NCBI GenBank assembly: GCA_964571965.1
Contig: CAZNFQ010000003.1
Span: forward strand, 1-63,422
Direction of reading: 5' to 3'
DNA from: an uncultured bacterium
GTDB lineage: Bacteria > Fermentibacterota > Fermentibacteria > Fermentibacterales > JCC-6
Length of the DNA stretch: 63,422 nt
In this document: in pieces, positions 14,647 to 29,227 of the stretch
Layout of the letters: the number at the start of each line of letters is the position of its first letter
How positions within the stretch are numbered: the stretch's first letter is position 1
Notes under the pieces: model-generated
Told to the model about the DNA's origin: nothing
What the model saw: the letters and a program-made list of their open reading frames with translations, nothing else
The model's database searches: none
Program-made: the position numbers and the translations under genes

Positions 14647-14975
14647 TCTTCGTCCATCAGTTTACCAAGCCTGCCTGCGTCAATAACACTTGCAAGCCAG
14701 CAGAAAGATAGAGGCGGGAGTACGAACAACTCAGCATTTCTCACACCGGAAAACGCGGAAGCAAACATTGCCTGCAGGTTAATGTCCTCACCATTCTCAG
14801 CCATTTCCTCAAGCCCGTTCCAGGTTCCTGCAGCCACTGTGACTATCAGCGCAATAGCGCAGCACAATGCAAATACCGCGAACAGTATTCCGCGCTTCCT
14901 GTGCTTAAGTACGAACTGCCCTGATCCGGGGAAGACCAGGGCAGACCAGAGTATTCCCCGAAGGGAGTTCTTCAC
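14607..14975 (-). CDS. Small integral membrane protein
   Basis: WSALVFPGSGQF...KRGILF motif with two further TM segments; GTGA overlap with upstream gene. Confidence 0.7.
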   Translation of the reverse strand: MKNSLRGILWSALVFPGSGQFVLKHRKRGILFAVFALCCAIALIVTVAAGTWNGLEEMAENGEDINLQAMFASAFSGVRNAELFVLPPLSFCWLASVIDAGRLGKLMDEDQRVKTQTSDQGV

Positions 14976-15712
14976 TGAAGAATACAGAAGGCAGTGGTTC
15001 CATCCCAGCTGGAGCCAAGGCTTTCATAGTCCCCTGTCATTGCGTCGGTTTTCCACAGGGAACCCTGCCAGATGCAGTAGACATAGTTGTTGTCGGCTGC
15101 CATCTCCGTTGCTCCCTCGTATCCTCCTCCAAGGCTCTCGTAGTCTCCACTCCTGGGATCTACACGGTAAAGGGTGTCTCCCTGAATAACGAAGAAGTAC
15201 CTGGAAGATCCCGCGACAGCGGTTGTCCCGGCATAACTGGAAGGAAGCTCCGTGTAGTCACCGGTAACTGGATCCGTTCTGTAGAGGGTGTTGTTCTGAA
15301 TAACCATGAGTGCGCCTCCGGCCCAGGCCAGATGCGTGGTTCCGGCATAATCCCCCGGAACTGTTTCCCAGCTCCCGTTGCGGGGATCCACGGCATAGAG
15401 AACATCGTTCTGTACCGCATAAAGCATTCCGTCCCCTGCGGTGAGGGCAACGGTTCCGCTCCATGTATCAGAGAGCTCTGTCCATGAACCATCGGTGGCC
15501 ACACTGTAGAGTACGTCATCCTGTATGGCATAAAGACTACCGTTCAAGGAAGTGAGCAGCCCGGTACCGCTCCAGGTTTCCGATATGGCTTCCCACTCTC
15601 CGGTTCCGGTGTCCGCAAGGTACAGTACATCCCCCTGAACCGCATAGATGTCACCTGCAAACGCAGCGGATGCCGAGAGGATCAGTACTGCTGAGATCAA
15701 AGTTCTTATCAT
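14972..15712 (-). CDS. Secreted six-repeat beta-propeller protein (lectin-like)
   Basis: Signal peptide MIRTLISAVLILSASAAFA then six 37-38-aa repeats of type YAVQxDxLYxxDxxxGxWExLxxx(W/Y)xGT. Start moved to ATG 15712. Confidence 0.8.
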   Translation of the reverse strand: MIRTLISAVLILSASAAFAGDIYAVQGDVLYLADTGTGEWEAISETWSGTGLLTSLNGSLYAIQDDVLYSVATDGSWTELSDTWSGTVALTAGDGMLYAVQNDVLYAVDPRNGSWETVPGDYAGTTHLAWAGGALMVIQNNTLYRTDPVTGDYTELPSSYAGTTAVAGSSRYFFVIQGDTLYRVDPRSGDYESLGGGYEGATEMAADNNYVYCIWQGSLWKTDAMTGDYESLGSSWDGTTAFCILQ

Positions 15713-15903
15713 CGTGTTCCCTTCTTTTCCTGTGTGGTTTATCAGCTTCTTCAAAGCCTTTCTGCAAATATCCCCGGCCTGTTAAGTACCTGGAGACCAC
15801 TATCGGCTATAAGTATAGCCCTGATAAACCACAGGGTAAATAAGGCATTTGATGGTGCTTCACCCGGAGGTATATTGGTTCAGCAACTTCGACGGGAGGA
15901 AAA

Positions 15904-17576: not shown

Positions 17577-19295
17577 GTGAAATTGAAGAAGTTGATGGAT
17601 CTGAAGGAAAGGGGTCTGCTTGACCCTGTGATCGAAGAGGCACTTGAAACGGTTCATACAGGATCATCAGGCAAAGAGCTCTCACAGCTCCATGCGCTCT
17701 GTTCAGATGTGATGTTCCAGAAGGCACAGTATAACGAAGCTGTGATGTACGGCGAAATGTCCGTGGAAGCTGATCCTGAGAATGCCGAAGGATACTCCTG
17801 CCTTGGCTGGGCGGAGTACTGGCTGGGGATTAACCAGAAAGCCCTTGCGGATCTGCAGAGAGCGGTGGAACTTTCTCCTGAAACCTCGGAATATCACTAC
17901 AGAACCGGCAGCATATTGAACAATGTTTTCGGAAAGCTCCCTGAAGCCGAAGCTGAGTTCACAGCAGCTCTTGAAGCTGATCCATCCCATGCTCTTGCCT
18001 GGCAGCAGAGGGGTATCTGCAGATGGAATCAGGGGAACAGAGAAGGGGCGGAACAGGATTACAGAAGAGGCGCTGAGCTTGGGGACTCTTACTGCGGCTA
18101 TATTCTTCAATACAACGGATTTGCCCTTGAAACTCCAATGGAAAAGATAGCCTTTGCCAGAGACAGCTGGGCTCAGAACGACTCTCAGACAGCAGTTGAT
18201 CTTATAGAACAGACTCTGGAATCAGCCCCGGAGGCAAACAGGGTGGAGATCAGGCTTGAACTGGCAGACAAACTGAGTTCCATGAAGCTCAATGACAAAG
18301 CCGAATTTCATTACAATCTGGCCATAGAGGAAGCACCGGAGAATCCCGAATGCTACGGCAGACGAGGCTGGCTCTACTACTGCGTAAGCAGGGATGATGA
18401 AGCGGAGAGAGACTTCCTGAAAGCAATGGAACTGGACCCTGAAAACAGCAGGTACCCTTCGAATCTGGGCAACCTCTATGCTGTGAGTGCAAGACCGCAG
18501 GAAGGTCTTGCGGTTCTCGACCCTGCAATAGAGAAGGATCCTTTCTTCTCAGAGCTTTACTATGCAAGGGCCCTGTGCCGAATGAAGCTGGGAATGGATG
18601 AGGAAGCAAAGTCAGATTTCAACGAAGCCGATTTCATGGGGCACAGAAATGCCCAGAATGACAGAAGGCAAGCCTACGGCGATGAATTCCCCATGGATTT
18701 CTTCTCTGCTGGAATAGAGGCAGGGGAGCAGAACGATCTTCAGCTTGCCGCTGAAAACTTCGCCAGAGCTGCTGAGATGTTTGAAACCGAAACGAAGTAT
18801 CAAGGGGACAAGGCCTTTCGTTACGCCTCGAAGAGCCTTCATAACCTGGGGTACTACCAGTATCTGTCAGGTGGAATGAACGATGCTGCAATAAAGAACA
18901 TGAAGAAAGCTCTGGAGATGGTCCCCCACTACAAGGATGCCTGGATATCCCTTGGGAACGTCTACAACAGCACAGGAGAGCAGGATCAGGCTCTGAACTG
19001 CTACAACAGAGCCATAGAGCTTCAACCCAATGACGGAAGAGGTTATTACAGCAGAGGAAGAATCAATCTTGACCTGCAGGAATACGATGCAGGAGTGGAT
19101 GATTTTTCCAGGGCAGTGGACTTCTACAGAAGGAGAGACTGGCAGGGGGATGCCTACTACAACAGAGGCAGGTGTCACGAAGGTGCAGGGAGAATCCACG
19201 AGGCCATTGCAGACTATAATCAGGCTTTCGGCCTTGGCATCCAGCAGGGACTCCATGAGTCATTCAGACTTAAGGACCAGTACGGCATAGAATAG
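17577..19295 (+). CDS. Tetratricopeptide repeat protein
   Basis: Many 34-aa TPR units (e.g. AWQQRGICRWNQG, AWISLGNVYNSTG, AYYNRGRCHEGAG); GGAGG RBS. Confidence 0.9.
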   Translation: MKLKKLMDLKERGLLDPVIEEALETVHTGSSGKELSQLHALCSDVMFQKAQYNEAVMYGEMSVEADPENAEGYSCLGWAEYWLGINQKALADLQRAVELSPETSEYHYRTGSILNNVFGKLPEAEAEFTAALEADPSHALAWQQRGICRWNQGNREGAEQDYRRGAELGDSYCGYILQYNGFALETPMEKIAFARDSWAQNDSQTAVDLIEQTLESAPEANRVEIRLELADKLSSMKLNDKAEFHYNLAIEEAPENPECYGRRGWLYYCVSRDDEAERDFLKAMELDPENSRYPSNLGNLYAVSARPQEGLAVLDPAIEKDPFFSELYYARALCRMKLGMDEEAKSDFNEADFMGHRNAQNDRRQAYGDEFPMDFFSAGIEAGEQNDLQLAAENFARAAEMFETETKYQGDKAFRYASKSLHNLGYYQYLSGGMNDAAIKNMKKALEMVPHYKDAWISLGNVYNSTGEQDQALNCYNRAIELQPNDGRGYYSRGRINLDLQEYDAGVDDFSRAVDFYRRRDWQGDAYYNRGRCHEGAGRIHEAIADYNQAFGLGIQQGLHESFRLKDQYGIE

Positions 19296-19309
19296 TCGAT
19301 CCCGGGAAT

Positions 19310-19352
19310 GGTCCCGTCTGGCAAATCCGTTTCAAGGCAGCGGGACGGGACC
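19310..19352. terminator. Stem-loop between convergent genes
   Basis: 9-bp inverted repeat GGTCCCGTC (19310-19318) / GACGGGACC (19344-19352); long loop, no strong U-tract. Confidence 0.35.
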
Positions 19353-19386
19353 TGAAAAGATCATGGCCGCAAATCCAACTGCCTGC

Positions 19387-20109
19387 TTATCGCTTACCCT
19401 TCCTCCATATTCCCCAGACTATTCTCCACTTCATAAGGGGAAGCTGAAGGGGAAGGTCCTTTATATGCATGGCAAGGAACTCGGGGTCAGGTTTCTGAAA
19501 AGAGCTTTCCGCCTCTCCTCCATGAAGCTTCCGGTATCCACCTTTCTCGAAATACCGGTCCAGGTATCCACCGTGAACCGTTGAGAGCCCCTGTTCTGAA
19601 AGACCGGCTCTCACCTTTTTGGCAATCCCCAGACAAGGTTTCTCTTCAATACTCTGATAATCGTATTCAGCGACCACGGCGAAGAGATCCGTTCTGATCT
19701 TCTTCAGCCACCTCACAGGATCCTCAAGCGAGGAAAAAAAGAATGAAGAAACATACATATCCGCCTCGGGAGGATTCCCCCGGGCATCACCTTCCGTAAA
19801 ATGTTCATCATCCGGAAGAATGCCCGGGTCTATGTCCATTCCCGCGTATGACGCGTCTGTGAGGGTCAGTATCTCTTTTCCCAGAAGACCGCTTCCGCAG
19901 CCCGGTTCGAATATCCTTTCAACTGAACCAATGGGCAGAAGGGAAAGCACATGCCTTCGCAGACAGGCGAGCTCCTTATACTGTCTCCGGTATATCTCCC
20001 TGAGCAGATCGCCTCTAAATCGAGTCTCTGCAGGAGGCTCCGTTCTTCTTCTCAAGGGGGCATCCTCCTCCGCAGAGTGTGAAGTGAACACATTCCCTGC
20101 AGGTTTCAT
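19387..20109 (-). CDS. Class I SAM-dependent methyltransferase, last gene of the radical SAM operon (true start probably near 20007)
   Basis: IFEPGCGSGLLG, YAGMDID motifs; the track start overlaps the rSAM gene by 95 nt so the start is uncertain. Confidence 0.8.
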   Translation of the reverse strand: MKPAGNVFTSHSAEEDAPLRRRTEPPAETRFRGDLLREIYRRQYKELACLRRHVLSLLPIGSVERIFEPGCGSGLLGKEILTLTDASYAGMDIDPGILPDDEHFTEGDARGNPPEADMYVSSFFFSSLEDPVRWLKKIRTDLFAVVAEYDYQSIEEKPCLGIAKKVRAGLSEQGLSTVHGGYLDRYFEKGGYRKLHGGEAESSFQKPDPEFLAMHIKDLPLQLPLMKWRIVWGIWRKGKR

Positions 20110-21334
20110 CCACCCATTTCCTTTCCCTGGCGGACACGAAAAGCTCGCTTTGCCAGATGGACTCCCATGGATCCTTCAGGATATTCCCGGCGGATTCGTA
20201 CCAGCTCTGACAGGGAAGCACCTCGCCGTCCGGTTCAACGCAGAGATTGTATTCCCCTGCTGTGCAACGCTTCTCGCCCAGGTCCAGTTCCAGAGGATTG
20301 AAAGCGCAGTAACGTGTTGGAGAATACCAGATGAACCTCATACCGAGCCTTTCCAGTTCCTCATTCATGGAAAGGATCACCGTTTCAAGCTGATCAAGCG
20401 GAATGGAAATGTCTTCCTCAAGGGCCTTGCCGCTGTGAATTATGGCGTTGGCAGCCACGGCTCCAAGGCCAAGGCCGTGGGCAAACTTCACGGTTTCAGT
20501 CATGCCCCCGGCATTTTTCTTAGTGATGGTGGTGTTGGTTATGGTGTGCAGCCCTGCCTTAACGCAGTTCCTTATTCCCTGAACTGTTTTATGGAAGCTG
20601 TCTGCTCCGGTCATTGCATTGTGAACAGTGCTGTCCGCTGACTCCAGTGTGATCTGAACATGGTCAAGGCCCGCATCCACAAGTGTTTTAAGGTATTCTG
20701 CGTCTGCCAGCTTCACCCCGTTGGTGAGAAGTCCGGTGACCATTCCCAGACTCTCGGCATGGGAGATAAGCTGAACGAGGTCATCCCGGAGAGTAGCCTC
20801 TCCGCCTGTGAATATCACATGTGGGATCCCCAGATCCCATACTTTTTTCAGAACTTCCTTCCACTGTTCAGTGGGAAGCTCTGCCTTCTCCCTTGTCTGG
20901 TTGTAACAGTGGGAGCAGTTAACATTACATCTGTATGTAAGGGCCAGATCCATTCTGTATGGAACGGAAACCTCTGTCTGGAAGGGCTCTGCCACATCCA
21001 TGTTCACATAGGATACGGGTTCCCCGGCTCCTTTGCCAAGGATATCCTTCAGGGTTTCACTGAATTCCCGAAGATCGCCGGCGGCCTGTTTTTTCTTCAC
21101 ATTGTAGCGTTTTTTCAAAGCCCGGATCATTTCCTTTTCGGAGTATTCAGAAAGGATCATCAAGCACATATCCACTGCCACAGGGTTCAGGTGTATCACC
21201 CGTGAAGCGTCCACCGTTAGCATTCCTGCTCCCGATTCCCCGGTTCGGAGATGTATCCGATGGTCCCCGGTCCTGAAATGTCTGATCCCCGGTTCGCTTA
21301 TTCTCTTTCCTGCTTCTTTCAGATTCCTGAACAT
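20015..21334 (-). CDS. Radical SAM/SPASM protein with N-terminal PqqD-like RiPP recognition element
   Basis: CNVNCSHC (CxxxCxxC), GGEATLR, TNG; SPASM C-x12-G-x4-C ... C-x2-C-x5-C-x3-C-x9-C; N-terminal LNPVA...SEKEMIRALKKRYNV...AAGDLREF. Start ATG 21334 behind GGGGGAGG. Confidence 0.9.
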   Translation of the reverse strand: MFRNLKEAGKRISEPGIRHFRTGDHRIHLRTGESGAGMLTVDASRVIHLNPVAVDMCLMILSEYSEKEMIRALKKRYNVKKKQAAGDLREFSETLKDILGKGAGEPVSYVNMDVAEPFQTEVSVPYRMDLALTYRCNVNCSHCYNQTREKAELPTEQWKEVLKKVWDLGIPHVIFTGGEATLRDDLVQLISHAESLGMVTGLLTNGVKLADAEYLKTLVDAGLDHVQITLESADSTVHNAMTGADSFHKTVQGIRNCVKAGLHTITNTTITKKNAGGMTETVKFAHGLGLGAVAANAIIHSGKALEEDISIPLDQLETVILSMNEELERLGMRFIWYSPTRYCAFNPLELDLGEKRCTAGEYNLCVEPDGEVLPCQSWYESAGNILKDPWESIWQSELFVSARERKWVDETCRECVHFTLCGGGCPLEKKNGASCRDSI

Positions 21335-21335
21335 G

Positions 21336-22886
21336 CTATCTGCCTCCCCCTGCACAGGCGCAGGCACAACCTGCGCAGGCACATGCACAGGCACAGCCGC
21401 TGCCCGAGCTGCTTCTGCCTGTGGAAACGGGAACGGGATTCGTGGTTGCCGTTACCGACCGGGAAAGCGAAGTTATGTTCGCCACGGTTCTTCCGGCAGC
21501 GCTCTCCAGTGCCCCCGCAAGCTGGGAACAGGCATTGCTCAATGACATTCCCCCTGCTGCCGAACCGGCTCTTCCTGAAATGTAACCGAACATGTATGCA
21601 GGAAGAATTGCTGTTCTGTTTTCCGGAATTTTCCTTACCCGCTGTTCATACTTACCGTCGGCAAGCATCCACTGGAAGCTGTTTCCCAGGATCTCCCCGG
21701 CTTTTTCAGAGGATCCGTCCTCCATGACCATCCGCCATGCACTTTGAATAATGCTTCTGTAGTATTCCCTGGTTTCCTTCAGGGAGTAACCATCCATCTT
21801 TTTCTGAAGTTCCTTTATCATGTCCAGGAACACTTTCCTTACGGGTTCAGCGGGAATGGGTTTATGGAGACCGCCTGTGGGGATCAGGGCAAGGATCCGC
21901 TTCTCGTATGAGCGAAGCCCTTCATCTGAACCGGTTCGTTCCAGCTTGTGGCCGTCCAGCTGAACCTTACCCTTCTTCAGAAGACCGAAAATTATGAGCA
22001 TGAATACCCTGTCCAGCTTTTCCTCCAGGAGAAGGGCGGCCATGGGAGCTGTAAGTCCCCGCTTGATGCCCGTTCCCTCAAGACCCAGTCTTGGAGGCAG
22101 GTACTGTTCCCTGCGTTTCTTCGCGCTGACCACCGATTTGACGATGACAAAAATAATGAAGGCAAAGAAAAGGAATATGAAACCGAAAACCGCAATCAAC
22201 ACCAGAGCTTCAGGGGAGATCAGAGGAGCTTTGGGTCTCTCGGTCAGGGGGCCGTCCACCAGGTCTTCAGGGAATGATACACCCACCATGTAGGGAGAAT
22301 CCACCCGCCTGATTTCCTGCCATACGTAAACCACCCTGCCGTCCTTGTCCACCCTGGACTCGGTGAATGGACGGTCATGGTACCTGACAAGATCAGGTTC
22401 TGCCCCCTCAGGGAAAACAACGGTCAGGGTGAATTCACTGGATCCGGAAAGAATACCCCCATCGAACCAGGTGGGTGAGAACTCCATTGACGCGTAGTCA
22501 TCGCTTTCAGTGTCCAGGAAAACCATGTTCCCGTTAACGCCTGAAAATCTGAATCGGCCCTGCTCTCCTCCGTAAATGGAAAATTCATCCAGGTGTACCT
22601 CCACGCCGTTGTCTATGTAGGTGGAGTAATAAATCCTGTCAAGGGTATGATTGTCGATGCCGGCTTCAACATCGGAAAGGCTGAAGTCATCCGACGGAAA
22701 CCCTATGTCAACGATGTCCACAGGGCTGAATCCCGGTGTGCATTCAAAAAGGATTTCATAACTTATATCCAGTGACCGGTCCCTGTTCACTTCCACAGCA
22801 CAGTTGAACTCGGGGATAGAGAAACCGTAGTTCTGGCTGAAGGCTGCTGATGCCAACAGTAAAAGAGATGAGGTCAACTTCACCAT
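21336..22886 (-). CDS. Signal-peptide/TM protein (DUF2207-like architecture) with C-terminal CACACACAGCACACAGGGR tail
   Basis: Signal peptide, about 200-aa exported beta-rich domain, TM helix ALVLIAVFGFIFLFFAFIIFVIV, soluble C-terminal region, Ser/Gly linker and 7-Cys tail verified codon by codon. Confidence 0.85.
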   Translation of the reverse strand: MVKLTSSLLLLASAAFSQNYGFSIPEFNCAVEVNRDRSLDISYEILFECTPGFSPVDIVDIGFPSDDFSLSDVEAGIDNHTLDRIYYSTYIDNGVEVHLDEFSIYGGEQGRFRFSGVNGNMVFLDTESDDYASMEFSPTWFDGGILSGSSEFTLTVVFPEGAEPDLVRYHDRPFTESRVDKDGRVVYVWQEIRRVDSPYMVGVSFPEDLVDGPLTERPKAPLISPEALVLIAVFGFIFLFFAFIIFVIVKSVVSAKKRREQYLPPRLGLEGTGIKRGLTAPMAALLLEEKLDRVFMLIIFGLLKKGKVQLDGHKLERTGSDEGLRSYEKRILALIPTGGLHKPIPAEPVRKVFLDMIKELQKKMDGYSLKETREYYRSIIQSAWRMVMEDGSSEKAGEILGNSFQWMLADGKYEQRVRKIPENRTAILPAYMFGYISGRAGSAAGGMSLSNACSQLAGALESAAGRTVANITSLSRSVTATTNPVPVSTGRSSSGSGCACACACAGCACACAGGGR

Positions 22887-23215
22887 TTCGGCGCCTCCTC
22901 CAGCTGATACTCACTATGACAATAGGGACATGAAACAAAAACGGTTCCTGCTCTTACAGAGGCATTATCAGAAGAAAGCGTACCTCCGCACTGCCTGCAT
23001 TTCATGTTCTCAAGGGTTACGTCACCGGTGAGTTCCAGTTCCTGTTTCACTATTACGTCACGGGTTCTGGGCTTTCTGAGCCCGGTCCACAGAAGAAAAA
23101 CCCCTGTAAGGAGTATCACTGCTCCGGAAACCGGTCTGCCTCCAATGAGAAAAACCAGCCCGAAAAAGATTGTAACTGCTCCGGAAACGGCAAGAACAAT
23201 TTTAAGCGCTTTCAT
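22880..23215 (-). CDS. Small membrane protein with C-terminal zinc ribbon
   Basis: Two TM helices then CRQC...CPYC; stop overlaps the next start (ATGGTGA). Confidence 0.8.
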   Translation of the reverse strand: MKALKIVLAVSGAVTIFFGLVFLIGGRPVSGAVILLTGVFLLWTGLRKPRTRDVIVKQELELTGDVTLENMKCRQCGGTLSSDNASVRAGTVFVSCPYCHSEYQLEEAPKW

Positions 23216-23285
23216 AATTCCCTCCCATTTGCTTTGGTAAATAACACTGGAAGGGAATCAGAACAAGGATAACTGCTGGAATGAA

Positions 23286-23786
23286 TCAGATGGCTTCGGC
23301 CAGGCCTTCGGTTTCGATTTCCATTCTGTAGAAGGGAACGGAGGTTCCATCCTGAAGTACCGTGGAACCCTCTCCGCTTACTGTGAAACCCACACTTCTG
23401 TAGGACCTTACTGCCCTTTCGTTGGCCTGCCTTACTGTAAGTCTGATTCTTGAAAGACCCAGGATTTCAACGGCTCTGTCAATGGCCATCACTATTACCC
23501 TGCGTCCTATCCCTCTGCCCAAAACATCAGGACGACCGATTATTATTCCCAGAATGCCTGTATCATCTCCCGGTCTTCGTCTGTCCACCCAGACTCCTCC
23601 AATGGCCTCATCATCGAGGATAATCGCATACCAGACATAGTCGGTACCCCACCGCTGAAGGTCCTCGGTCTTTTCAAAGTTAAGGGGTGTAACCTTCTGC
23701 ATGTACTTGTAGGAGCCCACGGCATTACTCCAGGCCTCAAGCTGCGAGAGGTCGTCCTCCTCGAATCGTCTAAGAGACAGTTTCAT
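23286..23786 (-). CDS. GNAT family N-acetyltransferase (RimJ/RimL-like)
   Basis: LRRFEEDD, IIIGRPDVLGRGIGR, NERAVRSYRSVGF. Start moved to ATG 23786. Confidence 0.88.
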   Translation of the reverse strand: MKLSLRRFEEDDLSQLEAWSNAVGSYKYMQKVTPLNFEKTEDLQRWGTDYVWYAIILDDEAIGGVWVDRRRPGDDTGILGIIIGRPDVLGRGIGRRVIVMAIDRAVEILGLSRIRLTVRQANERAVRSYRSVGFTVSGEGSTVLQDGTSVPFYRMEIETEGLAEAI

Positions 23787-23884
23787 CCAAAGTCTTTCTT
23801 GTTTACTTACCGATAAGTAATATTCCGCGTTAACCGGTATCATATTCAAATCCGGGGCAATTGGTCAACACGATTTCCATCTTG

Positions 23885-23896
23885 TAGATTAACAGA
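23885..23896 (+). promoter_or_regulatory. Putative -10 box of a leaderless transcript
   Basis: TAGATT (23885-23890), 6 nt, ATG 23897; no Shine-Dalgarno. Confidence 0.4.
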
Positions 23897-24676
23897 ATGG
23901 AAAGATCATCTGAAAGGTCCCACTGGGACAGGTTCTGGGAGAGGGAGCGGGATCTCTCGGAAATCTATGACAACGATGACCGTATAAGGATCGAGATTAA
24001 AAAGAGACTTGATCTTAATGGCCTGTATACCCTCGAGGTGGGAGCGGCCACTGCCCGTGACAGCGTTTCCCTTGCCGCAGAAGGAGCCCTTCCCTTCGCA
24101 CTGGATTACTCCCACGCAGCACTTAAACTTGCAGGAGAGGCAGCCTCCGGGGAAAACCGTACTCTTCTGCTGGTTTGCGGCGATGCAAACGCCCTTCCCT
24201 TCAGAGATGAATCATTCGACCTGGTTTTTCATCAGGGAGTAATGGAGCACTTCAGGAACACCATTCCCATGACAGAGGAGTGCACCAGGGTACTTAAACC
24301 CGGCGGGAACCTCCTGGTGGACGTTCCCCAGACTTTCCATGTGTACACCGTGATCAAGAAGATCCTTATCGCTTTTAACGCCTGGTTCGCCGGCTGGGAA
24401 ACCCAGTACACCGCTGCCGGGCTGAAGAAATACCTGCAAACCGCAGGTCTTGAGCCCTGGTCGGTCTACGGCAGGTATTTCTCCCCAAGTCTTTTTTACA
24501 GGATCCTCCGTGAGATACTCATGAAAGTGGGGATCAGGCTTCCCTTGCGGCCTGTTCTGATCCCCTGTATACACGAGCTGCGAAGCAGAATAAGAAAAAG
24601 GGTGGAAAGAAGTCCCCTTGGACCGCTTACAGGTGTAGTCATAGGAGTATTTGCCAGAAAGGCAGACCGCCGGTGA
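23897..24676 (+). CDS. Class I SAM-dependent methyltransferase (Methyltransf_11-like)
   Basis: LEVGAATARD, CGDANALPFRDESFDLVFHQGVMEHF, RVLKPGG. Confidence 0.88.
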   Translation: MERSSERSHWDRFWERERDLSEIYDNDDRIRIEIKKRLDLNGLYTLEVGAATARDSVSLAAEGALPFALDYSHAALKLAGEAASGENRTLLLVCGDANALPFRDESFDLVFHQGVMEHFRNTIPMTEECTRVLKPGGNLLVDVPQTFHVYTVIKKILIAFNAWFAGWETQYTAAGLKKYLQTAGLEPWSVYGRYFSPSLFYRILREILMKVGIRLPLRPVLIPCIHELRSRIRKRVERSPLGPLTGVVIGVFARKADRR

Positions 24677-25785
24677 AAATACTTGCCCTGAACTGGAGAG
24701 ATCCCAGGAACCCTGAAGCAGGGGGAGCGGAAATCCACCTGCACGAGATACTGAAAAGGGCTGTGAGAAAAGGCCACAGGGTGATACAGGTCTCCCATTC
24801 GGTTCAGTGGCTTCCGGAAAGGGAAGAAATAGACGGAGTAGAGATACACCGGCATGGCAGGTGGTACTCTTACAATTACACCCTCAGGAAATACTGTGAG
24901 AAACTTGATCTGGATTCATTCGACCTGATAGTGGAGGACATCTGCAAGGTTCCGGTTTTTTCACCCAGGTGGAGTCCCACGCCGGTTCTTGCAATTGTAC
25001 CTCATCTGTTCGGAACCACGGCCTTCAGGGAAGTATCGGCCCCAAAGGCTCTTTACGTGAATCTCCTCGAGGCTTTTATCCCGGGGATTTACCGCAACTG
25101 CAACTTCGTGGCAATAAGCGACAGCACCAAGGAAGATCTTGTCCGCAGAGGCATAACGCCTGATCGCGTCAGGGTTATCCCCTGCGGAATCGACACTGAA
25201 TTCTATAAACAGGACCCGCTGGTACCGGTTGAAGATAACCGGCTGCTCTTTGTGGGGCGGCTGAAGAGGTATAAAGGGGTACAGCATCTCCTGGAAGCAA
25301 TGAAAATACTGCACTCCCGGAACCTTCCCGTTAAGCTCACCGTAACCGGAGACGGCGACTACGCCAGACACCTGAGGCTGCTGGTGGGCAAGCTCAATCT
25401 TCAGGACAGCGTGGAATTCCCGGGGTTCATTCCCCAGGAGGAAAAGCTCCGCCAGATTCAAGGGGCTTACGTTGCGGTTTTCCCATCTGCGAAAGAGGGC
25501 TGGGGTCTTACCGTTATCGAGGCCAACTGCTGCGGCACTCCTGTTGTGGCAAGTGATTCAGACGGTCTTAGGGACTCAGTGAAGAACGGGGAAACAGGAT
25601 TACTCGTGGAGCATGAAAATCCAGTGGCACTTGCAGATGCTCTGGAGAGCATTCTGAAATCGCCTGAAAAAAGGCAGTACCTTTCGGACAATGCTCTTCG
25701 GTGGGCCCGGAGTTTTAACTGGGACAAGACAGGTGAAAAAATGCTGGAGGTAATGGAACAGACCGCAGGAGGTGGTAATGCTTAA
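24673..25785 (+). CDS. Glycosyltransferase family 4
   Basis: GGAEIHL, FVGRLKRYKG, EGWGLTVIEANCCGTPVV; GTGA overlap. Confidence 0.93.
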   Translation: MKILALNWRDPRNPEAGGAEIHLHEILKRAVRKGHRVIQVSHSVQWLPEREEIDGVEIHRHGRWYSYNYTLRKYCEKLDLDSFDLIVEDICKVPVFSPRWSPTPVLAIVPHLFGTTAFREVSAPKALYVNLLEAFIPGIYRNCNFVAISDSTKEDLVRRGITPDRVRVIPCGIDTEFYKQDPLVPVEDNRLLFVGRLKRYKGVQHLLEAMKILHSRNLPVKLTVTGDGDYARHLRLLVGKLNLQDSVEFPGFIPQEEKLRQIQGAYVAVFPSAKEGWGLTVIEANCCGTPVVASDSDGLRDSVKNGETGLLVEHENPVALADALESILKSPEKRQYLSDNALRWARSFNWDKTGEKMLEVMEQTAGGGNA

Positions 25786-26287
25786 GGAAATAAGGAACCG
25801 CAGAAGCATAAGGAGATACCTGAACGAGCCCGTGTCCGGTGAACAGCTGGAGACCCTTCTTCGGTCCGGGATGCAGGCGCCTTCTGCCAGAAATCTTCAG
25901 CCATGGGTATTCATCGTTACCAGAAACAGAGAACTTATGGGAAGGGTACCGGAGGTACACCCGTACGCGGGTATGGTCCCCTCTGCGGGAGCACTGATCC
26001 TGGTATCGGGAAACACCGAGATCCAACCGGAGATCGGGTACATTCTGGAGGATTGTTCCGCTTCGGTTCAGAACATTCTATTGGAAGCAGTACATCAGCA
26101 GCTGGGAGCCGTGTGGCTGGGAGTATACCCCAGGGAGGAACGGGTGAACGGTATATCGAAGCTGTTCCATCTTCCGAAACACATCATTCCCGTGGCTCTT
26201 GTTTCGGTGGGAGTGCCCGGGGAGGAAAAAGACTTCGAAGACAGGTTCGACCCTGCCAAGGTCCACACAGACAGGTGGAGCAACTGA
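25778..26287 (+). CDS. Nitroreductase family protein
   Basis: RRSIRRY, APSARNLQPW, GAVWLG; ATG 25778 behind AGGAGG. Confidence 0.92.
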   Translation: MLKEIRNRRSIRRYLNEPVSGEQLETLLRSGMQAPSARNLQPWVFIVTRNRELMGRVPEVHPYAGMVPSAGALILVSGNTEIQPEIGYILEDCSASVQNILLEAVHQQLGAVWLGVYPREERVNGISKLFHLPKHIIPVALVSVGVPGEEKDFEDRFDPAKVHTDRWSN

Positions 26288-26345
26288 GCCCTTTGCTGCA
26301 TTGCGGCACTGTTGTATCTTATTTTCCCAACAGGAAGGGTGCAAA

Positions 26346-27515
26346 GTGAATAACGAAACTGATCAGAGGGAGTTGATGGAAAGGATGATGTCCACCGGAA
26401 CCATCCTCATCAATATAGGTGACGTGGACATTCTTCTGGAGCAGATACTCACAGAAGCAAGGTATTTCACGAATGCCGATGCCGGTTCGATCTATACCGT
26501 AGAGGGTTCAGACCTGGCTTTCAGGCATTCCCAGAACGATACGATATTGTCCAGGGGCGGAAGGGTTCCCTATACCCGTTTCACCATACCAAAAAACAGG
26601 GAAAGTATTTCAGGCTACGTTGCCTGCACGGGAGAGATACTCAATCTGCCCGATGTGAGACGCATTCCTGAAAACGAGCCCTATTCCTTCGATGACAGTT
26701 ACGACAAACTATCCGGCTACACCACCACGTCTTGTCTCACCCTTCCTCTGGTGAACTCCAGACACCGGGTGGTGGGTGTTCTGCAGCTTATAAATGCAAA
26801 AAACAGAAGCGGAAAGTTCGTGCCTTTCCTGCTTGAAACGGAACCCCTTGCCAGATACTTCGCCTCCATGGCCACACTTGCCCTTGAAAGGGCTATGCTC
26901 ACAAGAACACTGCTTATGAGAATGATAAACATGACTGAACTCCGCGACCCCAAGGAAACCGGTCCCCACGTGAACAGAGTGGGCAGCTATGCCGTTGCAA
27001 TATACGATTCCTGGGCTGACAAACATGGATTCGGCAGCAGAGAAAAAATGTTGACCAGGGACGTTCTTCGAATGGCTGCAATGCTTCATGACGTTGGTAA
27101 AACAGGAATATCCGACGCTATTCTGAAAAAACCTGAACCCCTGGATGACCAGGAGCGATCTGCAATGGAAGCACACTGTTCAATTGGAGCAGACATACTC
27201 CGCAACTGTGAATCGGAATTCGACGAGATGGCAATGGAAATTGCCCAGTGCCACCACGAGAACTGGGACGGATCCGGATATCCCAGGGGGCTCTCAAAGA
27301 ACGAGATTCCCTTCATGGCCAGAATTACGTCAGTTGCAGACGTATTCGATGCTCTGAGTTCCAAAAGGGTTTACAAGGAGCCCTGGCCCGATGAAAAGGT
27401 AACCATGGAAATGGAATCCATGTTCGGAACCAAGTTCGATCCCGGCCTGAAAGAGCATTTCGCCTCCCAACTTCCAGTACTCAGGGAAATAAGGGAGAGC
27501 TACCCGGAAGAATAA
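26346..27515 (+). CDS. GAF + HD-GYP domain protein (probable cyclic di-nucleotide phosphodiesterase)
   Basis: ADAGSIY/GVLQLIN GAF motifs; LHDVGK, HHENWDGSGYP, VADVFDAL. Start moved to GTG 26346. Confidence 0.92.
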   Translation: MNNETDQRELMERMMSTGTILINIGDVDILLEQILTEARYFTNADAGSIYTVEGSDLAFRHSQNDTILSRGGRVPYTRFTIPKNRESISGYVACTGEILNLPDVRRIPENEPYSFDDSYDKLSGYTTTSCLTLPLVNSRHRVVGVLQLINAKNRSGKFVPFLLETEPLARYFASMATLALERAMLTRTLLMRMINMTELRDPKETGPHVNRVGSYAVAIYDSWADKHGFGSREKMLTRDVLRMAAMLHDVGKTGISDAILKKPEPLDDQERSAMEAHCSIGADILRNCESEFDEMAMEIAQCHHENWDGSGYPRGLSKNEIPFMARITSVADVFDALSSKRVYKEPWPDEKVTMEMESMFGTKFDPGLKEHFASQLPVLREIRESYPEE

Positions 27516-27526
27516 AGGAGAGTATC

Positions 27527-29227
27527 ATGCGCAGGCTGTTCGTTACAGCTGTTGTCCTGGCGGCATTCACCGCGTCAGCCCAGTGGACTGCCGATTCCAC
27601 TGAAAACCTTCAGATCTGCGATCTGGCAGGCGAACAAGTCCTTCCCAAAATAGTCCCCACTTCCGATTGCGGCTGTTTCATCTCCTGGTTCGATCAGAGA
27701 TCCGGCGACTATTGCGTTTACCTCCAGCGGCTTGATTATCAGGGTATCCCCCAGTTCCCCGACAACGGTATCCTTGTAAGTGACCATCCTCAGATGACCT
27801 GGCTTGTGGACTACTCCATGGCGGTGGATAACGAAGATAATGCGGTAATAGCGTTTTCCGATATCCGTTCCGCAGAGGAGGATCTTGACGTCTCAGTTTA
27901 CAAGATCAGCAGTACAGGGAATTTCCTCTGGGGTCCCGACGGCATAAGCCTGTCCGACACCTCTGAAGCCGGATTCGAACCCAATCCGGTCATAGCAGTA
28001 ACAGGCGAAAACAACTGTATCTTCGCCTGGGGGAAACAGACATCTGAATATTTCCTGGTAATGCAGAAACTTTCTCCGGACGGCACCAGATTGTGGGGCG
28101 ACTGGGGAATAAACATCACCGACCCGGAAGCCGATTTGTCCATCCCCGTTCTTGTTCCATCGGGAGAGGACAGCGTTATAGCAATGTGGAGAAGATCCAC
28201 CGGCTCCTACCCCATGACGGTTACCCATCTCTATACGGACATGTTCGACGTAAACGGCAACGGGATATGGGGAGACAGCCCGGTGCTTATATATGACAGC
28301 GGAGCCATTACCCCATGGAATAACCCCGGAATGATCTCTGACGGTCTGGGTGGAGCGGTCTGCTCCTGGTACGATGCTCCATCCCTTTCCGAATTCAATG
28401 TCTGGGTGCAGCATCTGGACATTCAGGGAAACATGCTCTACCCCATGAACGGGGCCCAGGCCTCCACCAATTCATCCGACAGACTGCACATGAGCCCCTC
28501 GGCGGGGATCAATCCCGCAACTGGAGAAACATGGGTATTCTGGGTGGAAACCAATGGCAATCAGGATCAGTGGGGTCTTTACGGACAGATGTTCGACTCA
28601 TCCGGTGACAGACAGTGGACCGACAGCGGGCTTGAGCTTATCCCTCTGGGAAACGAACAGATAGGGTTCGTGCAGACCTCTGTGGACGAATATGGCATTT
28701 TCGTCAGTTACTTCATCAATTCTTCTGCCACCTCGTTCAGGGTGTTCAGGCTCAACTTCGACGGCACCGTTATATGGGGACCCGTTGAGATCTCCGCGGG
28801 AAGCCTGGGCGGCAAGGACGATCCTGTGAGCTGTACCGGTTACGGGGGCAGTCGGATCTTCTCGTGGACCGACAACAGGATCGACGCTGGTATTTACGCC
28901 CAGAATCTGAAACAGGACGGTTCTATGGGCCCGTTCATGGGAATCGACGGGGAATCCTCTGCAAACGGGTTCTCTCTTTCGGTCTCCCCAAACCCTTCTT
29001 CAGGAAATGCTTCAATATCAATAACTTCTGATGCAACCTCCCCCTATGCGGTCCTTGCGCTTTACGATATCTCAGGAAGGCTTGTGGATACACTTTACTC
29101 AGGTGAGTTGATCAGCGGAGAGAACACATTTTCATGGCAGTCTGAAGGTTCTGCTTCAGGCATTTACCTTGTGCGCCTGCAAACAGAAGGAGGGGAAACC
29201 CAATGCCGACTGGTAATGCTCCACTGA
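27527..29227 (+). CDS. Secreted repeat (propeller-like) protein with T9SS-type C-terminal sorting domain
   Basis: Signal peptide; repeated W.D.R...Y.Q.L...G...W...G units; C-terminal SPNPS...LYDISGRLV...SGIYLVRL. Confidence 0.85.
   Translation: MRRLFVTAVVLAAFTASAQWTADSTENLQICDLAGEQVLPKIVPTSDCGCFISWFDQRSGDYCVYLQRLDYQGIPQFPDNGILVSDHPQMTWLVDYSMAVDNEDNAVIAFSDIRSAEEDLDVSVYKISSTGNFLWGPDGISLSDTSEAGFEPNPVIAVTGENNCIFAWGKQTSEYFLVMQKLSPDGTRLWGDWGINITDPEADLSIPVLVPSGEDSVIAMWRRSTGSYPMTVTHLYTDMFDVNGNGIWGDSPVLIYDSGAITPWNNPGMISDGLGGAVCSWYDAPSLSEFNVWVQHLDIQGNMLYPMNGAQASTNSSDRLHMSPSAGINPATGETWVFWVETNGNQDQWGLYGQMFDSSGDRQWTDSGLELIPLGNEQIGFVQTSVDEYGIFVSYFINSSATSFRVFRLNFDGTVIWGPVEISAGSLGGKDDPVSCTGYGGSRIFSWTDNRIDAGIYAQNLKQDGSMGPFMGIDGESSANGFSLSVSPNPSSGNASISITSDATSPYAVLALYDISGRLVDTLYSGELISGENTFSWQSEGSASGIYLVRLQTEGGETQCRLVMLH

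Follow-up and report, generated by a model that had tools for sequence, protein, structure and literature searches.

Radical S-adenosylmethionine (SAM)/SPASM maturases are a main source of new peptide chemistry, and genome mining for them seeks short precursor peptides; on cysteine-rich cores, the reaction that SPASM enzymes most commonly carry out is thioether formation. We describe here a three-gene cassette from an uncultured bacterium of the Fermentibacterota (lineage JCC-6), located in a stretch of 63,422 nucleotides (assembly GCA_964571965.1, contig CAZNFQ010000003.1, positions 1 to 63,422 of the forward strand; hereafter the window), in which a gene for such an enzyme directly follows the gene of a 516-amino acid membrane protein that ends in a tail of alternating cysteine and alanine. 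An earlier reading of the letters without database searches (the sequence-only reading) had proposed this tail to be either a core like that of a peptide that is ribosomally synthesized and then post-translationally modified (RiPP) or a metal- or Fe-S-binding element. Judging from sequence, predicted structure and gene neighborhood, we conclude that the tail is probably a substrate of the radical SAM enzyme, and we lean toward the fuller reading of a RiPP-like core that stays tethered to its protein and is modified by the neighboring enzyme in the cytoplasm. Neither the system nor the exact motif is described in the literature that we searched.

The SCIFF/ranthipeptide maturases CteB and Tte1186, and the PapB/freyrasin system, likewise combine a conserved cysteine-rich core, widespread in anaerobes, with an adjacent enzyme composed of a RiPP recognition element (RRE), a radical SAM domain and a SPASM domain; such strong conservation and wide distribution of the core in anaerobes argue for a physiological rather than an antibiotic role. 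However, SCIFF and PapA are free peptides of ~45 amino acids with Thr, Asp or Asn as acceptors, whereas here the core consists of Cys, Ala and Gly and is fused to a membrane protein of ~500 amino acids. Models of thioether maturases do appear among the listed matches of the window's enzyme (StsB, SkfB and AlbA), yet none reaches its cutoff. The substrate of PapB is a repeat that is processed unit by unit (PMC8326336, PMC10177961), and in both PapB and Tte1186, which are thioether-forming SPASM enzymes, the substrate cysteine, probed as selenocysteine, binds an auxiliary cluster directly (PMC10177961).

By analogy, the best precedents for a modification tethered to a protein would be QhpD/QhpC and anSME/sulfatase, in which a radical SAM/SPASM enzyme modifies cysteine in a functional protein that is afterwards retained rather than released (PMC8326336). 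QhpC differs in being a small soluble subunit with Cys-to-Asp/Glu links, and the window's enzyme has no sequence-level membership there; the anSME substrate motif, C/S-x-P/A-x-R, is not present in the tail, where no Cys is followed by x-P/A-x-R. PqqE/PqqD/PqqA and MftC/MftB/MftA share with the cassette an RRE of the PqqD type and a core that is small, invariant and close to the C-terminus, but the core described here has neither the Glu/Tyr of PqqA nor the Val-Tyr of MftA, and the remaining pqq and mft operon genes were not found at the cassette loci or in the window. The ACGX-repeat system (TIGR04340, TIGR04341), which we take to consist of a small peptide of A-C-G-X tandem repeats beside a dedicated enzyme, rSAM_ACGX, is presumably similar in outline, though its repeat has a period of four and not the period of two (C-A) seen here, and the tail protein has no NCBIfam match; ACGX is mentioned nowhere in the literature that we searched. 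SbtM, which converts Cys to a thiooxazole with loss of four hydrogens, and TvgB, which handles TVGG repeats iteratively (PMC11002830), are also radical SAM enzymes of the SPASM type, and show that both heterocyclization of Cys and repeat-by-repeat processing occur in this superfamily; their substrates are nevertheless unlike the tail, and the ortholog of our enzyme in Bellilinea is weakly similar to them (TIGR04082, 62.9 bits against a cutoff of 350).

The tail is encoded on the minus strand at 21336-21395, where the codons read tgt gcc tgt gca tgt gcc tgc gca ggt tgt gcc tgc gcc tgt gca ggg gga ggc aga tag, exactly as the sequence-only reading had quoted them. They translate to CACACACAGCACACAGGGR, with seven cysteines within 14 residues in CxC spacing; PVPVSTGRSSSGSG (...TNPVPVSTGRSSSGSG) precedes it. 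At the window's own amino acid composition, the probability of CACACACA at any given site is ~5e-12. The sequence-only reading had taken the mixed synonymous codons as the mark of a protein-level motif, and had named a tail not shared by orthologs as one result that would speak against its view; the family decides both points in its favor. CACACAGCACACAGGGR forms the C-terminus of 118 of the 120 best homologs, a set in which identity over the body of the protein falls to 34-35%; the two exceptions are a 333-amino acid fragment that stops before the tail (P0082) and a protein with an eight-cysteine version of the same tail (P0083). Aligning 36 diverse members, we found the last 17 columns to be invariant and the preceding two conserved in at least 90%, at a mean column identity of 45%. 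We then compared codons over 80 loci from at least eight phyla (79 fetched loci and the window, all carrying the exact 17-residue core, CACACAGCACACAGGGR). The core is written in 78 distinct DNA versions with zero nonsynonymous changes, and every possible codon occurs: two for Cys, four each for Ala and Gly, six for Arg and three for the stop. Since synonymous change is saturated and nonsynonymous change is lacking in the 80 loci, a microsatellite, an RNA element and a compositional artefact are ruled out; an origin of the tail as a DNA microsatellite or at the RNA level was accordingly rejected, codon usage being fully degenerate across loci. By these counts, the constraint on the tail is exerted at the level of the protein, and the tail is not a low-complexity sequence.

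Between the core and the rest of the protein lies the flexible Ser/Gly linker of the sequence-only reading, which across loci is made of Ser, Gly, Arg and Tyr and indeed varies in both sequence and length. Just upstream of it is an NPxP motif, in which P484 and P486 are invariant and N483 is conserved in at least 90% of the 36 aligned members. The motif occurs in all 80 loci with the main-type core, the first Cys of which follows the NP by 14-25 residues, and the RRE may use it as its recognition sequence. The tail itself has a predicted local distance difference test (pLDDT) score of ~30 in the AlphaFold2 (AF2) model and is thus predicted to be disordered, and hence accessible. An invariant core set behind a conserved motif and a variable linker matches, by analogy, the leader/core logic of RiPPs.

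Judged from its profile matches, the enzyme encoded next has the domain set that is typical of peptide maturases: a PqqD-type RRE (PF05402, 30.4 bits against a cutoff of 23.4, amino acids 39-97), a radical SAM domain (PF04055, 97 bits) with CNVNCSHC at amino acids 136-143 as its Cx3Cx2C motif, and a SPASM domain (PF13186, 40.7 bits against a cutoff of 21.5). The Cx3Cx2C motif is kept, and the RRE region covered, in 61/61 full-length orthologs. An alignment of 62 orthologs shows three sets of invariant residues: the three radical SAM cysteines, seven cysteines of the SPASM region (C343, C357, C375, C412, C415, C421 and C425) and an H-L-R motif in the RRE. The window's enzyme lies under every NCBIfam equivalog cutoff: the best match is PqqE (TIGR02109, 154.8 against 381), and the next are NirJ2, AhbD, a pseudo-SAM family, WgkB, MftC (TIGR03962, 109.7 against 265) and StsB (NF045574, 108.5 against 625). 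SkfB (TIGR04403, 96.6 against 300) and AlbA (NF012164, 68.3 against 850) are equally short of their cutoffs, those of ScmE/F, GeoRSP and WgkB are likewise not reached, and the Bellilinea ortholog gives the same pattern, all below cutoffs. SCIFF-, CteB- and PapB-specific models and that of rSAM_ACGX are not among the 25 NCBIfam matches listed for the enzyme. The solved structures nearest to it by sequence are PqqE (6c8v, 4e-24), SkfB (1e-20) and, distantly, CteB (5v1q, 1.8e-9). Because even the best NCBIfam matches (PqqE, NirJ2, AhbD) are far below cutoff, the chemistry of the enzyme cannot be read from homology.

The open reading frame (ORF) of the carrier is a real gene, since it has 537 homologs at E<=1e-3 in a 90%-clustered protein database and retrieves 410 clusters (50% identity) at E<=1e-30 in a profile search of 1.84 billion cluster representatives, the same search giving 1144 clusters at E<=1e-3 and 817 at E<=1e-10. 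On the plus strand, 21251-21727 and 21333-21545 overlap this gene as shadow ORFs. Every named database entry for the carrier reads 'hypothetical protein', and the window's protein gave no Pfam or NCBIfam match even at E<=10, the DUF2207 and metallothionein families included. As the sequence-only reading had proposed, the carrier is predicted to be oriented N-out/C-in: the N-terminus is signal-like and a single transmembrane helix (Kyte-Doolittle peak of 3.25; amino acids 225-259 in the AF2 model) is directly followed by KKRR, which places the tail, by prediction, in the cytoplasm. The alignment-based AF2 model has a mean pLDDT of 82, with a confident beta-sandwich at amino acids 20-206 and a helical domain at 280-482. 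In Foldseek, the ectodomain matches ribophorin I/OST1 (8b6l_O, 3.6e-10; 6ezn_A, 1.8e-8) and also resembles the N-domain of M1 aminopeptidases, whereas the cytoplasmic domain modeled alone (pLDDT 75) has no structural match in the PDB (best E=2.2). The latter domain bears the invariant motifs YLPP...G.GI(K/R)RGLTAP.AA.LLE and KGFS..ET..YY..I...AW, and upstream of the NPxP motif and core, 29 residues of the carrier are invariant among the 36 aligned members.

The order of signal peptide, beta-sandwich ectodomain, transmembrane helix and cytoplasmic region is shared with DUF2207 proteins (PF09972/PF20990), whose C-terminal tail is presumably Gly-rich like that of the carrier. Sub-threshold matches to DUF2207_C were seen in 3 of the 36 members (best E=0.021) and to the DUF2207 N-domain in one (E=0.11), making a remote relationship possible; to our knowledge, DUF2207 proteins carry neither a Cys-Ala core nor a radical SAM partner.

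As far as the matches listed show, the core is confined to this one type of carrier. A scan of metagenome DNA for the degenerate coding sequence of CACACAGGGR followed by a stop codon yielded at least 127 carriers on at least 120 contigs; among the matches listed, all 110 carriers that could be assessed fit a family hidden Markov model built without the tail, and no free-standing short precursor or other carrier protein was found. The remaining 17 carriers listed are cut off at contig ends or carry frameshifts; the longer of them mostly keep C-terminal motifs of the family, either TNPxP or the DLSG...VTGDV of a variant subfamily, the shortest being below the length that permits a judgment. A portable tail module or a free-standing precursor was therefore rejected, 110/110 assessable carriers belonging to this family. 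In one locus (L172, minus strand, 152-343) a 63-codon stop-to-stop ORF has a PIN-like 'LDTNVFV' start and continues with ...TNPPPVRASSGHSGGGGGYSCACACAGGGR; this may be chimeric, a copy with a frameshift or an artefact of assembly.

The pairing of tail and enzyme genes extends over many phyla. Scanning one genome per GTDB species, we found a relative of the carrier in at least 333 species, and the 80 best loci among these come from Fermentibacteria (Sabulitectum), which are the window's closest relatives in the set, and from Acidobacteriota, Aminicenantes, Zixibacteria, Cloacimonadota, Edwardsbacteria, Armatimonadota, Dehalococcoidales and many Anaerolineae; cultured carriers are Bellilinea caldifistulae, Ornatilinea apprima and Leptolinea sp. 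HRD-7. Altogether 83 loci were analyzed, 79 of which had enough flanking DNA to judge adjacency, and a radical SAM-type gene adjoins the tail gene in 73 of these 79, spanning Fermentibacteria, Acidobacteriota, Zixibacteria, Cloacimonadota, Aminicenantes, Chloroflexota and others. In divergent tail subfamilies (L086, L087), too, the radical SAM gene comes after the tail gene. Directly upstream of the tail gene, ~76 of the 83 loci encode a small membrane protein with a zinc ribbon (consensus ...C..CGg.L...aGa..V.CPyC...YQ..EePKW), whose zinc-ribbon matches in Pfam are sub-threshold only. In the window, the 3' end of this small gene overlaps the start of the tail gene by 7 nt (22880-22886), and the GGAGG Shine-Dalgarno sequence of the enzyme gene (21343-21347, 8 nt before its ATG at 21334) lies inside the codons of Gly513-Gly515 of the tail, an arrangement that suggests a translationally coupled operon. 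No component of the cassette reaches a curated family cutoff (Pfam family-specific or NCBIfam). The features of the locus are collected in Table 1.

Table 1. Features of the cassette in the window; positions count from its first letter.
Feature	Position	Strand	Basis or remark
Small partner protein, 111 aa: two transmembrane helices and a cytoplasmic C4 zinc ribbon, ending EEPKW	22880..23215	-	
Tail-bearing protein, 516 aa	21336-22886	-	ORF, homologs
Signal peptide (aa 1-18) and extracytoplasmic beta-sandwich ectodomain (aa ~19-210), predicted	22257..22886	-	AF2 pLDDT >90
Single transmembrane helix (aa 226-250), predicted	22137..22211	-	Kyte-Doolittle peak 3.25, KKRR on C-terminal side
Cytoplasmic helical domain (aa 251-482), predicted	21441..22136	-	Alignment; AF2 pLDDT 75-90
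NPxP motif N483-P484-V485-P486, within (V/I)TxxTNPxP	21429..21440	-	Alignment
Ser/Gly/Arg linker VSTGRSSSGSG (aa 487-497)	21396..21428	-	Sequence and length vary across loci
Core tail CACACACAGCACACAGGGR (aa 498-516), 7 Cys	21339..21395	-	Direct translation
Stop codon TAG of the tail gene	21336-21338	-	
RRE(PqqD)-radical SAM-SPASM enzyme, 439 aa	20015..21334	-	ATG at 21334, 1 nt past the stop of the tail gene
Class I SAM-dependent methyltransferase-like gene, 240 aa	19387..20109	-	Methyltransf_12 E=8.5e-5, below cutoff

A methyltransferase is a recurrent, though not universal, accessory of the cassette in several phyla. Orthologs of the window's methyltransferase-like gene follow the radical SAM gene in loci of Fermentibacteria and Acidobacteriota (L004-L011) and stand beside the tail gene in another locus (L074), while other methyltransferases adjoin the cassette in L087 and L088, and in L003 one lies ~560 nt past the radical SAM gene, beyond an intervening gene. 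No protease, transporter or exporter, further tailoring enzyme or metal-transport or resistance gene is conserved in the cassette neighborhoods examined. Upstream of the cassette, the window encodes a GNAT acetyltransferase (23286-23849, minus strand), which takes this place only in close Fermentibacteria relatives (L004, L006-L008), followed on the plus strand by a second methyltransferase (23897-24676), a GT4 glycosyltransferase (24673-25785), a nitroreductase (25772-26287) and a GAF/HD-type signaling protein (26199-27515), none of these four being conserved with the cassette. A scan for promoters and terminators over 19000-24200 stayed at chance level (6 against 4.0±2.3 and 7 against 5.7±2.2), with a weak promoter-like site at 23868-23839, ahead of the GNAT gene. 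Two repeat-rich secreted proteins farther away appear unrelated to the tail: one with YA(V/I)Q.D.LY repeats (14972-15754, minus strand), and a large protein that resembles a beta-propeller and has a C-terminus like a sorting domain (27527-29227, plus strand). Two metagenome contigs 100% identical to the window's tail gene (L084, L085) end 25-80 nt past its stop codon, which may mean that assembly broke off in the (TGYGCN)n stretch or close to it.

Many Anaerolineae add a further component. In 30 loci, mostly of Anaerolineae/Chloroflexota, the active radical SAM gene is directly followed by a pseudo-radical SAM paralog (L050:7951-9216, L064:8032-9219, L079:8054-9232 and 27 other loci), which has lost both Cx3Cx2C and SPASM but retains the PqqD/RRE and a portion of the radical SAM barrel; it holds 0-3 cysteines in 30/30 cases, where the active enzyme has a median of 14. 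The window has no such gene. This paralog resembles known catalytically dead radical SAM partners of the pseudo-SAM/SPASM kind, such as TIGR04347, but falls outside that family (40 bits against a cutoff of 525) and has no SPASM domain. With its RRE still in place, it may be a non-catalytic chaperone for the same tail.

While the residues of the tail are strictly invariant inside the main clade, the number of repeats differs between clades. A comparison of 147 representatives (50% identity) shows a modular tail of the general form (CA)2-5-G-(CA)3-4-GGGR; the central Gly is replaced by Ser or Val-Ser in some, spacer-less tails of (CA)5-6GGGR exist, and the shortest form is CACAGGGR. The repeat number ranges over (CA)2-6, with extra C[A/V] blocks in some tails, and divergent branches have longer arrays, such as CVCACVSCACVCACVSCACACAGGGAG. 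From these sequences, the common denominator is Cys in alternation with a small hydrophobic residue, Ala or sometimes Val, ending in CACA(CA)GGG and usually in Arg-COOH. One divergent subfamily of ~600-640 amino acids (L033, L037, L058, L071, L088:2298-4166) has the tail (CA)2-3-G-(CA)4-GGGR and DLSGVDRVTGDV where other members have the TNPxP motif. In three of its loci (L033, L058, L071) the order is rearranged to small gene, radical SAM gene, degenerate radical SAM-like gene (which retains only PqqD-like and SPASM parts) and tail gene.

Tail-protein paralogs also occur in tandem, each with a core of different length (L087:273-3571; L088:492-4166), for example (CA)6GGGR with (CA)5GGGR, or CACAGGGR with (CA)2G(CA)4GGGR. 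In L087 the two tandem genes stand beside one radical SAM gene; the 6.5-kb contig of the L088 pair holds no recognizable one. Two tail matches ~2 kb apart were further seen on several metagenome contigs (L094, L100, L103, L124, L155). Four longer proteins of 766-774 amino acids (P0121, P0127, P0134, P0143) have an N-terminal extension of ~240 amino acids and a second matched stretch to the profile, and the extension may be a duplicated ectodomain.

The mechanism that we propose starts from a conserved cassette of three genes, which encode the membrane protein that bears the tail, its small membrane partner with a zinc ribbon and the RRE-radical SAM-SPASM enzyme, with the tail as the substrate end. 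The PqqD-like RRE of the enzyme would bind the stretch containing NPxP, and the disordered core would be fed into the radical SAM active site, where 5'-deoxyadenosyl radical chemistry, together with the auxiliary SPASM clusters, would modify the Cys-Ala units one by one. The likeliest reaction would be formation of thioethers, from sulfur to carbon, between the Cys thiols and neighboring Ala or Gly carbons, the main alternative chemistries being conversion of Cys to thiooxazole and epimerization at Calpha. The modified tail would remain on the membrane protein, as in QhpC/QhpD or sulfatase/anSME, and would act as a rigid, sulfur-rich element on the cytoplasmic face, possibly metal-binding or redox-active.

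That the tail is likely the substrate of this enzyme follows from the maturase architecture with its RRE, from translational coupling, from pairing across phyla and from the layout of motif, linker and core, as well as from a disordered tail that shares the compartment of the enzyme (both being predicted to be cytoplasmic) and from tandem carriers beside one enzyme, which resemble, by analogy, the multiple precursors of RiPP clusters. Retention of the modified tail is suggested because the core never sits on a small peptide among the matches listed, because the other domains of the carrier are conserved and because no protease or exporter travels with the cassette. As to the chemistry, thioether formation is our leading guess, since it is the commonest SPASM reaction on Cys-rich cores and since substrate Cys binds the cluster in PapB and Tte1186. 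The variable number of repeats would favor processing unit by unit, as for the substrates of PapB and TvgB (PMC8326336; PMC11002830), and conversion of Cys to thiooxazole, as by SbtM (PMC11002830), would be a real alternative.

Several observations weigh against this picture. Six informative loci, of which three belong to Edwardsbacteria and one to Armatimonadota, have no radical SAM gene within 1.4-5 kb downstream of the tail gene (L019, L026, L037, L053, L074, L077), and in ~4 loci (L039, L045, L070, L082) only a Cys-less pseudo-radical SAM gene stands next to the tail gene; where an adjacent active enzyme is lacking, it could be encoded elsewhere in the genome. The core is made of Cys, Ala and Gly, with a terminal Arg, and offers none of the Asp, Asn, Glu or Thr acceptors of known ranthipeptide synthases, and the enzyme is close to no characterized thioether synthase. 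Finally, the variable repeat number argues, at the level of sequence comparison, against a single fixed cross-link topology. A fixed sactipeptide-like hairpin was down-weighted in view of the (CA)5-6GGGR and CACAGGGR tails, a single-block tail standing beside a radical SAM gene of the same type in L087.

The proposal of a RiPP-like core, made in the sequence-only reading, holds in part: the adjacent RRE-radical SAM-SPASM gene and its pairing across phyla lend it strong genetic support, whereas a classical RiPP does not fit a carrier of ~500 amino acids in 110/110 cases, or a cassette with no conserved protease or exporter. As far as its sequences tell, the system behaves in a RiPP-like manner, yet fails the hallmark of a RiPP precursor, a short and cleaved peptide. 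It is conceivable, at a little under even chances in our estimate, that it represents a new class of post-translational modification, in which an RRE-guided radical SAM enzyme builds a sulfur-rich rod (poly-thioether, poly-thiooxazole or alternating D/L) on the cytoplasmic C-terminus of a full-size, single-pass membrane protein. It would then amount to a RiPP borne by a protein or to a cofactor derived from one, kept with invariant sequence in hundreds of species of at least eight bacterial phyla, mostly uncultured or anaerobic; if so, an extracellular ribophorin-like binding domain may be coupled to intracellular metal or redox chemistry.

Among the alternatives, the one that survives best, though we consider it unlikely, is that the tail is an unmodified, metallothionein-like element that chelates Cu(I), Zn, Cd or an Fe-S cluster. 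An extended tail would put all thiols on one face, and the radical SAM enzyme would be a partner for docking or cluster exchange, or would have another substrate. Seven Cys in CxC spacing, facing a reducing cytoplasm, suit such a role, the number of repeats varies like a capacity parameter, and in divergent members Ala gives way to the beta-favoring Val while the turn positions vary (G, S, VS), as would fit an amphipathic beta-hairpin or meander with a thiol face. Metal-thiolate tails, however, normally tolerate changes at the X positions, whereas over 80 loci and at least eight phyla the Ala and Gly positions are as invariant as Cys, and the C-terminal GGGR with them. Nor does metal binding need a phylum-spanning coupling to a maturase-type radical SAM enzyme with an RRE, and metal-transport or resistance genes are not conserved nearby.

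It is quite improbable, in our view, that the enzyme is a Calpha epimerase acting on every second residue, which would turn the tail into an alternating D/L peptide, beta-helix-like or a protease-resistant rod. Such an enzyme would account for the strict period of two and for the invariance of Ala as well as Cys, and radical SAM epimerases do abstract the Calpha hydrogen, with the epimerizations of polytheonamide set two residues apart (PMC8326336). But PoyD-type enzymes and EpeE/YydG are described as mutually unrelated and as independent of a leader peptide (PMC8326336), no epimerase family is among the top NCBIfam matches of the window's enzyme, and epimerization gives no specific reason for Cys to be required.

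More doubtful still is a released product, similar to pyrroloquinoline quinone or mycofactocin, cut off after modification from a membrane protein that would serve as its scaffold. PqqE is the best match of the enzyme among both profiles and solved structures (6c8v), and the core is invariant and exactly C-terminal, as in precursors of the MftA and PqqA type; yet release is hard to reconcile with a cassette that conserves no protease, transporter or further tailoring enzyme and with a core that never occurs on a short peptide among the matches listed, and a conserved ectodomain, transmembrane helix and cytoplasmic domain with 29 invariant residues would be wasteful in a disposable scaffold. 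That the tail is a functionless low-complexity or microsatellite-derived extension with a radical SAM gene next to it by coincidence, which the (TGYGCN)n-like repeat in the DNA, the varying number of CA units between lineages and the two contigs that end just past the tail might have suggested, is effectively refuted by zero nonsynonymous against saturated synonymous change in 80 loci, by a tail kept at 34-35% body identity and by gene pairing conserved across phyla.

Modification of a tethered core by the adjacent enzyme is the reading with which we consider the meaning of the cassette. As judged from its homologs, the tail protein occurs widely in the membranes of bacteria that are uncultured or anaerobic, and has no annotation. 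Mining for short peptides would miss it, since the core is the last 19 residues of an unannotated 516-amino acid membrane protein. The core is conserved as strictly as the cofactor precursors PqqA and MftA. Such strictness implies that its function is important and specific in Fermentibacteria, Anaerolineae, Cloacimonadota, Acidobacteriota and further lineages, many of which are dominant in anaerobic digesters and sediments. As the substrate fragment is short and cultured carriers exist, the hypothesis is directly testable, and if true, it would establish a new class of substrate, the membrane-tethered core, probably with a new product structure made from Cys, Ala and Gly alone, and would give the pseudo-radical SAM partner a defined role.

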